DNA from: Escherichia phage vB_EcoP-101117UKE2
Direction: 5' to 3' (one strand)
DNA length: 44,526 nt
Sequence record: MZ234019.1
Of the stretch, positions 14,204-44,096 are shown piece by piece (position 1 is the stretch's first letter; each line of letters starts with the position of its first letter). The translations under genes and the position numbers were made by a program. Under the pieces are notes generated by a model. That model was not told the DNA's origin, ran no database searches, and worked only from the letters and a program-made list of their open reading frames with translations.

Positions 14204-15203
14204 ACTTCGTAGCCTTTATAAAGACTCCGAGGTGCTTGATGCAATCGAGCAAGCTACCGACGAGAAAGGTAATGTTAACTATAATGAGATGGCGAAGGTT
14301 CTATCTAGCCACCCTGTGGGTAAGAAGATCACCCGTCAACTTGCTCGCTACTGGCATGGTCAGTTCAAGAAGACCAAGAAGAATGGTGATTATTACCAGA
14401 CTCTTCTGCAAGAGGATAAGCGTATCAAAGAAGAGCGTAAGCTCAGGACTCCTGACCGCTACGAGGATTTGGCTATTGTACCATTGCCTGACTCGCCTCA
14501 TCGAAGTGTACTGGTGATCCCTGATACTCATGCACCTTATGAGCACCCAGATACCTTAGAATTCCTTGCAGCAGTGGCAGCACGTTATCGACCAGACACA
14601 GTGGTACATCTTGGAGATGAGGCAGATAAACATGCCCTGTCATTCCATGATTCGGATCCAAATTTGGACAGTGCTGGCATGGAGTTAGAGAAGGCTCGTG
14701 TCTTCATGCACAAGTTGCACAAGATGTTCCCTGTGATGCGCCTGTGTCATTCTAACCATGGCTCTATGCACTTCCGTAAGGCAAGCGCCAAGGGTATTCC
14801 AGTACAATATCTGCGTACCTATCGTGAAGTCTTCTTTCCGAATGGAGGTGGCGACCAGTGGGACTGGCAGCATACCCACGTTCTTGAGTTGCCGAATGGT
14901 GAACAGGTGGCATTCAAGCACCAACCTGCTGGCTCTGTCCTAGCAGATGCAGCACACGAGCGTATGAACCTTGTGTGTGGTCACTTGCATGGTAAGATGT
15001 CGGTAGAGTATGCACGTAATACACATGAACAGTATTGGGCTGTGCAGGGTGGCTGTCTGATTGATGAGTCCTCTCGTGCATTTGCCTATGGTCGTGAGTC
15101 TAAATACAAGCCAGCATTAGGTTGTGTGGTTATTCTGGAAGGTGTGCCTCATATTGTCCCGATGCAGACCAATAGTGACAATCGCTGGATTGGTAAGATT
15201 TAG
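14196..15203 (+). CDS. calcineurin-like metallophosphoesterase (about 335 aa)
   Basis: Motifs IPDTHAP, HLGDEAD, CHSNHG, CGHLHG; GTG start 14196 with AGGAGG RBS inside endo VII 3' end (track start 14085). Confidence 0.75.
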   Translation: MAKLRSLYKDSEVLDAIEQATDEKGNVNYNEMAKVLSSHPVGKKITRQLARYWHGQFKKTKKNGDYYQTLLQEDKRIKEERKLRTPDRYEDLAIVPLPDSPHRSVLVIPDTHAPYEHPDTLEFLAAVAARYRPDTVVHLGDEADKHALSFHDSDPNLDSAGMELEKARVFMHKLHKMFPVMRLCHSNHGSMHFRKASAKGIPVQYLRTYREVFFPNGGGDQWDWQHTHVLELPNGEQVAFKHQPAGSVLADAAHERMNLVCGHLHGKMSVEYARNTHEQYWAVQGGCLIDESSRAFAYGRESKYKPALGCVVILEGVPHIVPMQTNSDNRWIGKI

Positions 15204-15220
15204 TTGACACTATAGAACAA
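15198..15220 (+). promoter_or_regulatory. phage RNAP promoter variant ATTTAGTTGACACTATAGAACAA
   Basis: Closer to classical SP6 consensus ATTTAGGTGACACTATAG; overlaps upstream stop. Confidence 0.65.
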
Positions 15221-17067: not shown

Positions 17068-17196
17068 ATGGAGATGCTTGAGATGATTCTCAAGCCTTCT
17101 TCTCCGAAAGTAACTAAGACTCATGAAGAGTTAATCGTAGATGAAGTGAAGCGTTACATTATGGATTGTGTCAAGGCACAACTGGTAGTCCAATGA
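17068..17196 (+). CDS. small hypothetical protein (42 aa)
   Basis: ATG after GAGGGG; stop overlaps next start (ATGA). Confidence 0.3.
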   Translation: MEMLEMILKPSSPKVTKTHEELIVDEVKRYIMDCVKAQLVVQ

Positions 17197-17654
17197 TACG
17201 TCAAGCATCTTTCTTAGATATACCTGATATTATTAATCTAGGCGACAAGTATGTAGAAGAGGAAGTTAAGGTAGTAGCACACCACTCCCCTTCATGGAAT
17301 GCAGAACAAAGCGCAGCAAACCTGTGTGCATCTCTTGTCCGAGATGATTTATTCTTATGGGTTGCTGTAGATGAGGGAATCATTGTAGGATTCCTATGGG
17401 CTGGGTATCATGACTTAGCACCTTGGACACCAGTGCGTGTTGCATCTGATATTCTTTTCTACATCGTACCAGAGAAGCGTGGCACTCTCTTAGGAATGAG
17501 ACTTATCAAAGCCTATAAGCAATGGGCTTTTGAGAAGGAATGCGCTGAAGTGAGACTGTCTATTGCCTCTGGTATCAATGAAGAGCGTGTTGGGCGTATG
17601 TATGAGCGGTTAGGCTTTGAGACGTTCGGCACTGTGTATAACCTGAAACTTTAA
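17193..17654 (+). CDS. GNAT-fold acetyltransferase-like protein (153 aa)
   Basis: Pattern IVGFLWAGY...GMRLIKAYKQWAFEKECAEVRL...YERLGFE typical of GNAT fold; not verified by search. Confidence 0.55.
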   Translation: MIRQASFLDIPDIINLGDKYVEEEVKVVAHHSPSWNAEQSAANLCASLVRDDLFLWVAVDEGIIVGFLWAGYHDLAPWTPVRVASDILFYIVPEKRGTLLGMRLIKAYKQWAFEKECAEVRLSIASGINEERVGRMYERLGFETFGTVYNLKL

Positions 17655-17663
17655 GGAGGCAAT

Positions 17664-17873
17664 ATGGGTGTCGTGAAGAAGGCATTTAAAGCAATTGGTC
17701 TTGCACCTGAGACGCCGAAAATTGAGGCGGCTAAGACTCCGGCACAACAGTTAGAGCGTGAACCGGAGACTACGGCAGAGGATATTACATTAGGCCAAGA
17801 TGATAACGCAACGGCTGCGGCACGTGGTAAGCGTGGACTGATTCGTCCAGTGGCATCGAGCTTAGGGATTTAA
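17664..17873 (+). CDS. hypothetical protein (69 aa)
   Basis: ATG with AAGGAGG RBS. Confidence 0.6.
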   Translation: MGVVKKAFKAIGLAPETPKIEAAKTPAQQLEREPETTAEDITLGQDDNATAAARGKRGLIRPVASSLGI

Positions 17874-17874
17874 T

Positions 17875-19425
17875 ATGATGCAAGACACCGACCTTGAGTA
17901 TGGTGGAAAGCGGTCGAAGATACCTAAGTTGTGGGAGAAGCTATCTACTAAGCGCAATCCTTTCATGGACAGGGCAAAGCACTATGCGAGGTTGACTTTG
18001 CCATACCTCATGAATGAGGAGGGAGACAACAATACTTCTCAGAATGGGTGGCAAGGTGTAGGTGCGCAGGCCACTAACCACTTAGCTAACAAGTTAGCAC
18101 AAGTCCTCTTCCCTGCTCAACGCTCTTTCTTCCGAGTTGACTTGACGGCAAAAGGGGAGAAGATATTAAACAACAGAGGGCTTAAGAAGACCAAATTAGC
18201 TACGCTGTTTGCTCAAGTAGAGACTGCTGCTATGAAGCAACTAGAGCAGCGACAGTTCCGCCCAGCGGTGGTGGAGTGCTTCAAGCATTTGATTGTTGCT
18301 GGCAACTGTATGTTGTACAAGCCAAGCAAGGGTGCAATCAGTGCTATACCTATGCATCACTATGTAGTTAATCGAGATGCTAATGGGGAACTACTGGATA
18401 TTATCTTACTACAAGAGAAGGCACTCAAGACATTCGACCCTGCAACTCGCATGGCTATTGAAGTAGGCATGAAAGGTAAGAAGTGCAAGGATAGTGATAA
18501 TGTAAAACTCTACACACACGCCAAGTATGAAGGTGAGGGTTTTTGGGAATTAAAGCAATCAGCAGACGATATACCTATTGGTAAGTCTAGCAGAATCAAG
18601 GCTGATAAACTTCCATTTATCCCTCTTACTTGGAAGAGGTCTTATGGAGAAGATTGGGGTCGTCCTCTCGCAGAGGATTATTCTGGTGATTTATTCGTAA
18701 TCCAATTCCTATCAGAAGCAGTTGCGCGTGGGGCTGCTTTGATGGCTGACATTAAATACCTGATCCGTCCGGGTGCTCAGACAGATGTAGACCACTTTGT
18801 TAACTCAGGGACTGGTGAAGTAATCACTGGTGTGGAAGAAGATATCCACATTGTCCAACTAGGCAAGTATGCAGACCTAACACCCATAAGTGCTGTACTA
18901 GAGGTTTATACGCGCCGCATAGGGGTAGTCTTCATGATGGAGACTATGACACGACGAGATGCAGAACGTGTAACCGCTGTAGAGATACAGCGAGATGCTC
19001 TTGAGATTGAGCAGAACATGGGTGGCGTATATTCACTCTTTGCTACGACTATGCAGACACCAGTGGCTATGTGGGGTCTGCTTGATGCCGGAGACTCTTT
19101 CACTAGTGACCTAGTAGACCCTGTTATCATCACAGGTATTGAAGCATTAGGTCGCATGGCAGAGTTGGATAAGCTGGCTAACTTCGCTCAGTATATGGCA
19201 TTACCTATGAGTTGGCCTGAGCCAGTACAGGCAGCAGTGAACTGGCCTGATTATATGGATTGGGTTCGTGGTCAGATCTCCGCTGAACTTCCATTCCTAA
19301 AATCAGAAAAGCAGATGAAGCAAGAACAAGCACAGATGGCACAAGCACAGCAAGAGCAGATGCTTAATGAAGGAGTGGCTAAAGCTGTTCCGGGTGTCAT
19401 TCAACAAGAACTTAAGGAGGCGTAA
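17875..19425 (+). CDS. portal (head-tail connector) protein
   Basis: WQGVGAQATNHLANKLAQVLFP and ERVTAVEI...GGVYSLF align with T7 gp8; synteny. Confidence 0.9.
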   Translation: MMQDTDLEYGGKRSKIPKLWEKLSTKRNPFMDRAKHYARLTLPYLMNEEGDNNTSQNGWQGVGAQATNHLANKLAQVLFPAQRSFFRVDLTAKGEKILNNRGLKKTKLATLFAQVETAAMKQLEQRQFRPAVVECFKHLIVAGNCMLYKPSKGAISAIPMHHYVVNRDANGELLDIILLQEKALKTFDPATRMAIEVGMKGKKCKDSDNVKLYTHAKYEGEGFWELKQSADDIPIGKSSRIKADKLPFIPLTWKRSYGEDWGRPLAEDYSGDLFVIQFLSEAVARGAALMADIKYLIRPGAQTDVDHFVNSGTGEVITGVEEDIHIVQLGKYADLTPISAVLEVYTRRIGVVFMMETMTRRDAERVTAVEIQRDALEIEQNMGGVYSLFATTMQTPVAMWGLLDAGDSFTSDLVDPVIITGIEALGRMAELDKLANFAQYMALPMSWPEPVQAAVNWPDYMDWVRGQISAELPFLKSEKQMKQEQAQMAQAQQEQMLNEGVAKAVPGVIQQELKEA

Positions 19426-20339: not shown

Positions 20340-20362
20340 ATTTACTGGACACTATAGAAGGG
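20340..20362 (+). promoter_or_regulatory. phage RNAP promoter ATTTACTGGACACTATAGAAGGG upstream of capsid gene
   Basis: Consensus match. Confidence 0.85.
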
Positions 20363-21612: not shown

Positions 21613-21621
21613 TAACCTATG

Positions 21622-21657
21622 CCCTATCTACCTTGCGTAGGTAGGGTTCTTTTGTTT
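21622..21657 (+). terminator. phage-type (T-phi-like) terminator after capsid gene
   Basis: Stem CCCTATCTA/TAGGTAGGG, 7-nt loop, then TTCTTTTGTTT. Confidence 0.6.
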
Positions 21658-37965: not shown

Positions 37966-38247
37966 ATGGCTAATGATTATAGTAATCAGCCCTTAACTGG
38001 TCGCTATGACCGTAAACAGATTACACCAACTAGTGAAGCGTTAATGCTCCCTGTTGTTACAGAGGAGTCTATTAAGAAGAAAGCCAATGTTATCAATGAT
38101 GCAACCAAATCTGGTAAACAGAAAGCAGCAATGGTGTGTCGTCCTGTAGGTGGCACTCTTGAGATTGCCATTGCTACTGGCAGCAAAGAGGATGCAGATT
38201 GGTTGTCTGTTAAAATGGATGGCGTTGGTCTTATTACACCGGCTTAA
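37966..38247 (+). CDS. hypothetical protein, tandem paralog 1 of 3 (93 aa)
   Basis: AAGGAG RBS; shared motif SGKQKAAMV...IAIATGSKEDADW. Confidence 0.65.
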   Translation: MANDYSNQPLTGRYDRKQITPTSEALMLPVVTEESIKKKANVINDATKSGKQKAAMVCRPVGGTLEIAIATGSKEDADWLSVKMDGVGLITPA

Positions 38248-38264: not shown

Positions 38265-38552
38265 ATGTCTAAGTATGGCGATGCAGGTACTACTACTGGT
38301 CAGGCTTTTCGTGTAAAAGCAGTACAAACTATTGCAACTGCAATCCCTATGCCTATCGTGGCAGAAGTTGACCTTAAAAAGAAAGATCATCCAATTAATA
38401 TTGAACACCTATCTGGTAAGCAGAAAGGTGCTATGGTGGTTGTAGATAAAGGAGATAATAGCCTTTATATTGCTATTGCACGTGGTTCTGCACCAACTGA
38501 CCAGTGGGATGTAACTACTATGGAAGCTGTACCTGTAACACCAGGAGCTTAA
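38265..38552 (+). CDS. hypothetical protein, tandem paralog 2 of 3 (95 aa)
   Basis: AAGGAG RBS; shared motif SGKQKGAMV...IAIARGSAPTDQW. Confidence 0.65.
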   Translation: MSKYGDAGTTTGQAFRVKAVQTIATAIPMPIVAEVDLKKKDHPINIEHLSGKQKGAMVVVDKGDNSLYIAIARGSAPTDQWDVTTMEAVPVTPGA

Positions 38553-38553
38553 T

Positions 38554-39243
38554 ATGCTGGGAGTAACAGGACAACGCAATAAGAATGTAGCCACCAAAGT
38601 AGTGGCTGATTTAGCTACTGCTGCTACTGTCGAGGGATTACGAGACACACATAGCTCTATTAACCGTGCTGACCTTTCTGGTAAACAAGAAGGTTCCGCT
38701 GTTATTGTTAAGAAAGAAGATGGGAATTATTCTATCTTTGTAGCAACAGGAAGCAAGCCGACTGATGTGTGGAAAGAGTTGTCTCCAACAATACCAGAGC
38801 AAGAGATGCCTGCTGAATATATTGATATGATTGATGTTCAAATTCATCAAGATTCTGCAAGCAACTTACGTATAGACTCTTCTCGCACTAGTTTAATACA
38901 AACACCAATGTGGGATACTGAAGGTGAGTTGTTATTCCGTAATACACTAAGTGCAACATGTTCTTGTACTATTCTTGTTGATGGTGCGTCTGGTGTTCGT
39001 CAGGATTTTACTTTTAAGATTAATGGACTTTTAGAGCAGGAAGAGCAGTATTATGATATTGACACACTTATGTGCTCTATTCACTCTGCAACAACAACTA
39101 ATGGCCTTACCTTGTGTATGCCAGATGCTAAAAGTGCAAAGACTAATAAAGTGGTAGTTAAGATCGACACTATGCAGTCATTAGCTATGAGCTTTGATCT
39201 TAACTTCCTTGTAGAATGGACGTCACCAACGAGGTTACTATAA
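38554..39243 (+). CDS. hypothetical protein, tandem paralog 3 of 3 with extra C-terminal domain (229 aa)
   Basis: AGGAG RBS; shared motif SGKQEGSAVIV...IFVATGSKPTDVW. Confidence 0.65.
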   Translation: MLGVTGQRNKNVATKVVADLATAATVEGLRDTHSSINRADLSGKQEGSAVIVKKEDGNYSIFVATGSKPTDVWKELSPTIPEQEMPAEYIDMIDVQIHQDSASNLRIDSSRTSLIQTPMWDTEGELLFRNTLSATCSCTILVDGASGVRQDFTFKINGLLEQEEQYYDIDTLMCSIHSATTTNGLTLCMPDAKSAKTNKVVVKIDTMQSLAMSFDLNFLVEWTSPTRLL

Positions 39244-43742: not shown

Positions 43743-44096
43743 ATGGCTATGTCTAATATGACTTACTCTCAGGTTTACAACACCGCTCATGCTGCATTAG
43801 TTGAACGTATCTGGAATGATGCTATTGATTGTATCGATAACGCACATGATGCAATCCATGAGGTAGCGGACAGTGCTGTACCAATCTATTATGCTGACAT
43901 CTTCTCAGTGATGGCGAGTGAAGGTATTGATCACTTCTTCGAAGACTCCGGCCTGATGCCAGATACTAAGGATGTAACGGTCGTACTACAAGCCCGTATC
44001 TATGAACAACTCACCATTGATTTATGGGAACGTGTTCAAGATATGATTGTTGCGTACACCACTTACGCTGATTATTCAGAAGAAGAGGAAGAATAA
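43743..44096 (+). CDS. ocr: Ocr-like anti-restriction DNA-mimic protein (117 aa)
   Basis: MAMSNMTY start and [52 protein letters not shown] match recalled T7 gp0.3; acidic C-terminus; GAGG RBS. Confidence 0.9.

Follow-up and report, generated by a model that had tools for sequence, protein, structure and literature searches.

The closest described systems to the gene treated here are small proteins encoded in one conserved slot of Autographiviridae genomes, in which a small open reading frame (ORF), a GNAT gene, a gene for a gp7.3-like protein and the portal gene follow each other, and which is occupied by Rac in LUZ19/phiKMV and by gene 7 in T7. Rac (LUZ19 gp28) is a small single-domain GNAT (PF00583 23.0 bits, above the cut-off), encoded directly before the small virion protein gp29 and the portal by a gene which overlaps or abuts its neighbours. 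It triggers cleavage of the alpha-subunit linker of the Pseudomonas aeruginosa RNA polymerase in a process that needs the acetyl-CoA pocket, and this cleavage phenotype is genus-specific even within the Krylovirinae (PMC7552054). T7 gene 7, in turn, is annotated as ‘host range’ and codes for 133 amino acids (aa; PHROG 2746), and SP6p28 (gp27 in the Era103 annotation notes) carries the label ‘acetyltransferase’. Among solved structures, the best sequence matches are the Acinetobacter baumannii 1,3-diaminopropane acetyltransferase Dpa (PDB 8A9O) and SSAT2 (PDB 2BEI). Here, we report on a gene at positions 17193-17654 of the genome of Escherichia phage vB_EcoP-101117UKE2 (sequence record MZ234019.1; the whole stretch of 44,526 nucleotides is referred to as the window), whose product we assign with high confidence, as regards both identity and enzymatic class, to the small single-domain, acetyl-CoA-using GNAT-fold enzymes of the SP6p28/PHROG 1249 family.

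The gene extends on the + strand from an ATG at 17193 to a TAA at 17652-17654 and codes for a protein of 153 aa with a mass of 17.4 kDa and an isoelectric point (pI) of 5.2. Profile searches matched the Pfam families PF00583 (Acetyltransf_1; 37.1 bits versus a gathering cut-off of 20.7, E=4.2e-9) and PF13508 (33.6 bits versus a cut-off of 27, E=5.2e-8), as well as PHROG 1249 ‘acetyltransferase’ over essentially its full length (E=4.6e-54; residues 1-151 align with positions 9-155 of the 180 in the profile). An AlphaFold2 model calculated from a 36-sequence alignment (mean predicted local distance difference test score 89.5, predicted template modelling score 0.85) displays the canonical order of GNAT elements, β1-α1-α2-β2-β3-β4-α3-β5-α4-β6-β7, with a short β6-β7 hairpin. 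Foldseek searches with this model returned 807 matches at E<=1e-3, with template modelling scores reaching 0.82 against acetyl-CoA-bound GNATs. A preceding sequence-only reading of the window had described a 153-aa ORF with the hallmarks of a GNAT fold at this locus. The ORF is found at exactly these coordinates, its homologues and its Pfam hit go far beyond chance, all three profile families agree with the proposed fold, and the predicted structure contains a confidently modelled acetyl-CoA loop between β4 and α3, although with a non-canonical motif. Of the two outcomes that this reading had named as refuting its proposal, a failure of the profile searches and a fold devoid of the loop, neither was observed.

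The protein belongs to a family of considerable distribution. Matches at 53-98% identity were obtained for 41 database proteins, and tblastn detected homologues in 234 phage records, with at least 80% of the length covered in 231. These include phages of Escherichia, Klebsiella, Salmonella, Proteus, Erwinia, Vibrio, Pseudomonas and Marinomonas together with Roseophage SIO1. The tblastn identities amount to ca. 73% for the Salmonella SP6-like phages and to 28-42% for Era103 and the Vibrio, Pseudomonas syringae and SIO1 phages. Members of the SP6p28-like family are found in Vectrevirus, Zindervirus, Eracentumvirus and Colwellvirinae phages; SP6p28 itself is of equal length (462 nucleotides in SP6) and shares the gene layout, and the homologues of Era103, Vibrio AS51 and Pseudomonas Achelous carry the annotation acetyltransferase within the same layout. 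The genome of 44,526 bp is 100% identical to that of Escherichia phage vB_EcoP-101118B1 (MZ234020.1; Autographiviridae, Molineuxvirinae, Vectrevirus), in which the gene (101118B1_026) is labelled ‘hypothetical protein’, whereas relatives at 85-97% nucleotide identity label it ‘acetyltransferase’ or ‘N-acetyltransferase’. Apart from this label there is no difference of substance from the SP6p28 family, and the gene is an ordinary, already known member of a phage family annotated as acetyltransferase. Over the region examined, window coordinates correspond to those of MZ234020.1 plus 55, both records being 44,526 bp long, and the window appears to be a rotated copy of this linear record. In SIO1, the homologue (NC_002519, 2474-2935; 28% identity) forms part of a tail/internal-protein module, where it is flanked by a tail appendage gene and by gp26.1/gp26, and no portal gene adjoins it in the stretch examined.

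The β4-loop-α3 element, the counterpart of the CoA pyrophosphate-binding motif R/Q-x-x-G-x-G/A, was modelled with confidence. Four of its residues (Table 1) are highly conserved among the 36 relatives, with Arg96 and a Gly, Ala or Ser at position 101 present in all of them, Gly97 in 35/36 and a Thr or Ser at position 98 in 34/36. The first and last positions conform to the motif, while its central glycine is replaced in 36/36. Asn129, which is counted with the residues of the cofactor site, is likewise conserved among the relatives. GNATs bind the pyrophosphate via main-chain amides, and binding of acetyl-CoA is therefore still expected. Nine further polar or aromatic residues are invariant, namely His31, Trp35, Trp69, Trp78, Asp86, Tyr90, Glu119, Arg121 and Ser123; judging from the topology, they would be placed on elements that line the acceptor cleft. 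Dpa and SSAT2 are similar in size to the phage protein and align with it over the whole domain including the catalytic tyrosine, which corresponds to Tyr137 and is the general acid of SSAT and Dpa. Their identity to it is, however, only 17-26%, and both contain the central glycine of the CoA motif that is absent here. Between the Dpa entries 8A9O and 8A9N, a difference (Tyr versus Phe) is found exactly at the position equivalent to Tyr137. In a first mechanistic scenario, acetyl-CoA would be bound via the β4-α3 loop (Arg96-Gly97-Thr98) and the β5-α4 region (Ser123 and Ser126-Gly127-Ile128-Asn129), and the acetyl group would then be passed to an amine held in the cleft, whose lining would be formed by the invariant residues with the exception of Ser123 of the β5-α4 region.

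The start codon is well defined. The program-made ORF list offered TTG 17166 as an alternative, which was rejected because the homologues begin at a conserved M-I/V-R; this N-terminus, on which the assignment of ATG 17193 is based, is common to all 35 aligned homologues (35/35), and a few of them carry upstream extensions. The stop codon TGA (17194-17196) of a preceding 42-aa ORF overlaps the start in the sequence ATGA, and the same 4-nucleotide overlap of the two coding sequences is annotated in SP6, in the Raoultella phage vB_Ro_P3a and in MZ234020.1. Inspection of the sequence before ATG 17193 revealed no Shine-Dalgarno motif. Because of the stop/start overlap and the lack of this motif, translational coupling to the upstream gene, as already advanced from the bare sequence, may reasonably be assumed, and the enzyme would probably be translated by re-initiation after the 42-aa ORF. 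The sole stem-loop near the gene is found inside this small ORF at 17076-17095, with a perfect 8-bp stem and a 4-nucleotide loop (GCTTGAGA TGAT TCTCAAGC); it was flagged by the terminator scan, but its T-tail is poor.

The genomic slot connects the gene to the better described systems. The order of ligase, small ORFs, GNAT, small ORF and portal recurs in SP6, vB_Ro_P3a, Era103, Vibrio AS51 and Pseudomonas Achelous, and the slot layout is shared by seven Rac-family loci. Rac-family members in the slot include those of LKA1, MR16 and J8-65 of the phiKMV type and of gh-1, Lepni01 and phTUNSm of the T7 type, and in the latter three genomes the Rac-family gene stands at the position of T7 gene 7. 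When the profile of seven Rac-family members was aligned with that of the window family, hhalign reported a probability of 85% (E=6.1e-6 over 88 columns). T7 gp7 shows no Pfam GNAT match and a marginal one to phrog_3986 (E=0.025), and, like its family, it contains neither helix α4 nor the R-G-T/S motif, in whose place PEADSKGLQRF is found. For a homologue of T7 gp7 with 98% identity, structure modelling predicts a GNAT fold. The T7 gp7 profile is marginally related to the Rac family (E=0.0044), the D-x-H-x-G turn being present in both. Direct comparison of the window family with T7 gp7 at the sequence level gave no significant similarity (E=0.14; hhalign profile E=0.11). The literature searched contains nothing on T7 gp7 as a GNAT. 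A chain of slot-sharing GNAT-fold families leading from T7 gp7 via Rac/gh-1 to SP6p28, and with it a common descent of all three, is plausible.

Several observations weigh against the view of the protein as a conventional acetyltransferase acting in the manner of Rac. Position 99, the place of the canonical central glycine, is occupied by Leu, Met, Arg, Val, Tyr, Ser, Phe or Thr and in 0/36 relatives by Gly, and Tyr137 is exchanged for Phe in 6/36; because of these two deviations the activity, as far as it can be read from the sequence, may be weak or unusual. A direct homology to Rac was not substantiated, as BLASTP was negative (E=1.1) and single-sequence hhalign marginal (E=0.037-0.044); a match worthy of credence was obtained solely when the two family profiles were aligned. 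Rac itself belongs to phrog_3986 (E=2e-66) and matches phrog_1249 weakly (E=4.9e-4), and the window protein gave no match to phrog_3986 at E<=1. The relation between the two proteins may thus consist of shared superfamily membership and no more. Moreover, the GNAT homologue of LKA1 occupies the same slot and does not cause alpha cleavage (PMC7552054), so that the function of Rac is not transferable by position; Rac also differs in having Pseudomonas as host. Of the substrate-specific NCBIfam families none was matched, every hit being far below its cut-off. The structural neighbours are mixed and comprise the protein N-alpha and N-epsilon acetyltransferases Ard1, Hpa2, Naa60 and NatC as well as Dpa, SSAT2, AAC(6')-Iy and phosphinothricin acetyltransferases, at identities of 13-26%, and the best solved structure for the family profile is that of a polyamine acetyltransferase, Dpa (E=3.3e-8). 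Finally, in the literature searched no experiment is reported on the SP6/K1E/K1-5 protein, and nothing was found there on a Vectrevirus acetyltransferase.

The sequence-only reading had left the target of acetylation open, and this part of it stands. Attempts to derive a substrate from the curated NCBIfam models AAC(6'), RimI, MshD, ArsN1 and PRK03624 (a generic GNAT model) were abandoned in view of the low scores, for instance 22.5 bits as the best score for AAC_6p versus a cut-off of 140 and 17.4 bits for the RimI S18 alanine acetyltransferase TIGR01575 versus 86.4. Likewise, a defence or anti-defence identity was sought in PADLOC-DB, where solely PDC-M11A was hit (E=0.011, 12.6 bits), and was not adopted. 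As target class we tentatively favour proteins, whose lysine residues or N-termini, in host or phage proteins, might be acetylated in a Rac-like takeover of the host. This preference is based on the sole characterised slot member, Rac, which works in this way, and on the lack of T7-like shut-off functions, as tblastn searches of the whole genome for T7 gp0.7 (kinase/host shut-off) and gp2 (host RNA polymerase inhibitor) yielded no homologue of either. T7 Ocr (gp0.3) does have a homologue, located at 43743-44093 (64% identity over 117 aa, E=3e-43 in tblastn). A small-molecule amine as acceptor, be it a polyamine or diamine, an aminoglycoside-like compound or an amino-acid analogue, is in our estimate somewhat unlikely; its acetylation would change the polyamine pool for DNA packaging or detoxify an anti-phage metabolite. 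Such a substrate would be in line with the best sequence relatives of solved structure, all of them acting on small molecules (Dpa with the family profile, and SSAT2 with E=0.0016 and PA4866 and AAC(6')-Iy with E of ca. 0.01), and with the best NCBIfam hits, PRK03624, an unnamed GNAT acetyltransferase model, and AAC(6'). The acidic pI and the invariant Trp35, Trp69, Trp78, Tyr90, Asp86 and Glu119, which presumably lie near the acceptor cleft, are reminiscent of a site for cationic amines, and according to the model the short β6-β7 hairpin probably leaves the acceptor site open.

An improbable variant of a protein target is that the enzyme modifies virion or ejection proteins of the phage itself, such as the gp7.3-like protein encoded next to it or those of the internal core, and thereby tunes infectivity in the sense of a ‘host range’ function. 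The GNAT gene always adjoins the gp7.3-like gene and the portal gene, with which it is co-transcribed, the SIO1 homologue resides within the tail/internal-protein module, and T7 gene 7 in the same slot combines the ‘host range’ annotation with the GNAT fold predicted for its close homologue. However, a family devoid of the acetyl-CoA motif and of helix α4, as that of T7 gp7, need not owe its phenotype to acetylation, and the one characterised slot member acts on host proteins. The apparent loss of motif and α4 in T7 gp7, together with the missing central glycine and the Tyr137 exchange described above, could also be taken to mean that the GNAT fold is catalytically dead and exerts its effect through binding, either as a scaffold or by inhibiting a host factor. 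We consider this highly improbable, given that Arg96, Gly97, Thr/Ser98, Gly/Ala/Ser101, Asn129 and the presumed polar residues of the cleft vary little or not at all among relatives of 53-98% identity, that Pfam models built from active enzymes score the protein above threshold, and that the loss of one glycine is tolerable when the pyrophosphate is held by main-chain amides. Least credible, to the point of being almost negligible, is a nucleic-acid-modifying GNAT resembling Mom of phage Mu and acting on phage DNA or nucleotides. This idea draws on nothing but the location of the gene behind those for ligase and nucleotide kinase and on the existence of GNAT-fold DNA modifiers (PMC7261163, PMC13219725); no Mom-like protein is among the listed sequence or fold matches, the pI of 5.2 is unlike that of a DNA-binding enzyme, and the conserved neighbours are virion genes and not genes of DNA metabolism.

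The features of the locus are compiled in Table 1. Twelve exact ACACTATAG cores with a common consensus close to ATTTACTGGACACTATAGAAG occur in the window, all on the + strand (3716, 6018, 6960, 10387, 10850, 12081, 15207, 20349, 27328, 35713, 37818 and 40171), which we take to be SP6-type promoters. Between the promoter nearest upstream of the GNAT gene and the core at 20349 no further core is present, and the gene is therefore part of one phage-polymerase transcription unit together with nucleotide kinase, ligase, two small ORFs, the 69-aa gene, portal and scaffold. A scan for sigma-70 promoters around the gene yielded sites not above shuffled expectation. The enzyme is presumably made in the middle-to-late period. 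The sequence-only reading had placed the gene at the end of the replication module, which is correct insofar as it shares the promoter with the ligase gene; the same unit, however, also includes portal and scaffold, and the gene occupies the slot of T7 gene 7 directly upstream of the gp7.3-like gene. It may equally be regarded as opening the virion block and as closing the replication block. The family of the 69-aa protein, phrog_1320, is that of T7 gp7.3, which itself matches at 9.7e-30, and the termini of the protein are basic, its centre is rich in A/P/Q, and an acidic stretch is present. This pattern has been described for the gp7.3-like ‘ejection wedge’ proteins of phiKMV-like phages (bioRxiv 10.64898/2026.05.18.726046). 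In MZ234020.1 the 69-aa gene is labelled hypothetical.

Table 1. Features of the GNAT locus and its surroundings in the window (positions in the 44,526-nucleotide stretch)
Feature	Position	Strand	Remarks
Phage RNA-polymerase promoter ATTTAGTTGACACTATAGAAC	15198..15218	+	Nearest upstream of the GNAT gene; exact ACACTATAG core
42-aa ORF, function not assigned	17068..17196	+	phrog_6507, E=4.8e-27; stop overlaps GNAT start
GNAT-fold N-acetyltransferase gene (very probable)	17193..17654	+	SP6p28 homologue, PHROG 1249 family
Codons R96-G97-T98-L99-L100-G101, β4-α3 loop	17478..17495	+	Aligned to SSAT2 RGQGIG and Dpa RRQGSA
Shine-Dalgarno motif AAGGAGG for the next gene	17653..17659	+	Overlaps GNAT stop codon; read from the sequence
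69-aa gp7.3-like small virion protein (‘host range and adsorption’/ejection-wedge)	17664..17873	+	phrog_1320, E=4.1e-10
Portal (head-tail connector) gene, start of structural block	17875..19425	+	Annotation in MZ234020.1 and relatives
Next phage promoter ATTTACTGGACACTATAGAAG	20340..20360	+	Before the major capsid gene

Two observations were made farther downstream. At 21621-21647, directly after the major capsid gene, there is an 11-bp stem-loop with a T-run behind it, at the position where the main late terminator is expected in T7/SP6-like phages. Downstream of the terminase gene, three tandem paralogues (37966-38247, 38265-38552 and 38554-39243; 93, 95 and 229 aa) share an N-terminal domain of ca. 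90 aa with the motif SGKQ.[GA].[AM]V...G......IA.GS...D.W. All three match phrog_2725 (‘acetyl-CoA acetyltransferase’), but Pfam gave no match for any of them (0/3), and a thiolase would have to be far longer; this label has the appearance of a mis-annotation that has been propagated.

The immediate outcome is a corrected label, as the ‘hypothetical protein’ of MZ234020.1 becomes the ‘acetyltransferase’ that its relatives already carry. This GNAT is conserved in hundreds of podophages, among them therapeutic-type coliphages and phages of Klebsiella, Salmonella, Vibrio and Pseudomonas. The connection that the slot provides to Rac and T7 gene 7 should be taken as a lead of modest weight that can be tested, and not as a result. 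The predicted GNAT fold of the close T7 gp7 homologue ties a classic uncharacterised T7 gene to the GNAT slot, and if the descent within the slot holds true, the long-unexplained ‘host range’ gene 7 of T7 would gain an evolutionary origin. In the most far-reaching version, which we regard as speculative and improbable, an ancient slot GNAT of the Autographiviridae diverged into T7 gp7, Rac/gh-1 and SP6p28, and the Vectrevirus enzyme is the enterobacterial counterpart of Rac that shuts off the E. coli RNA polymerase by acetylating a host factor, e.g. via cleavage of the alpha subunit. If true, the enzyme would make up for the gp0.7-like and gp2-like shut-off proteins that SP6-like phages lack. 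Rac, the only characterised GNAT in the slot, disables host transcription; if the SP6-type enzyme acted comparably in E. coli, the underlying mechanism would become dissectable in a host with far better genetics.
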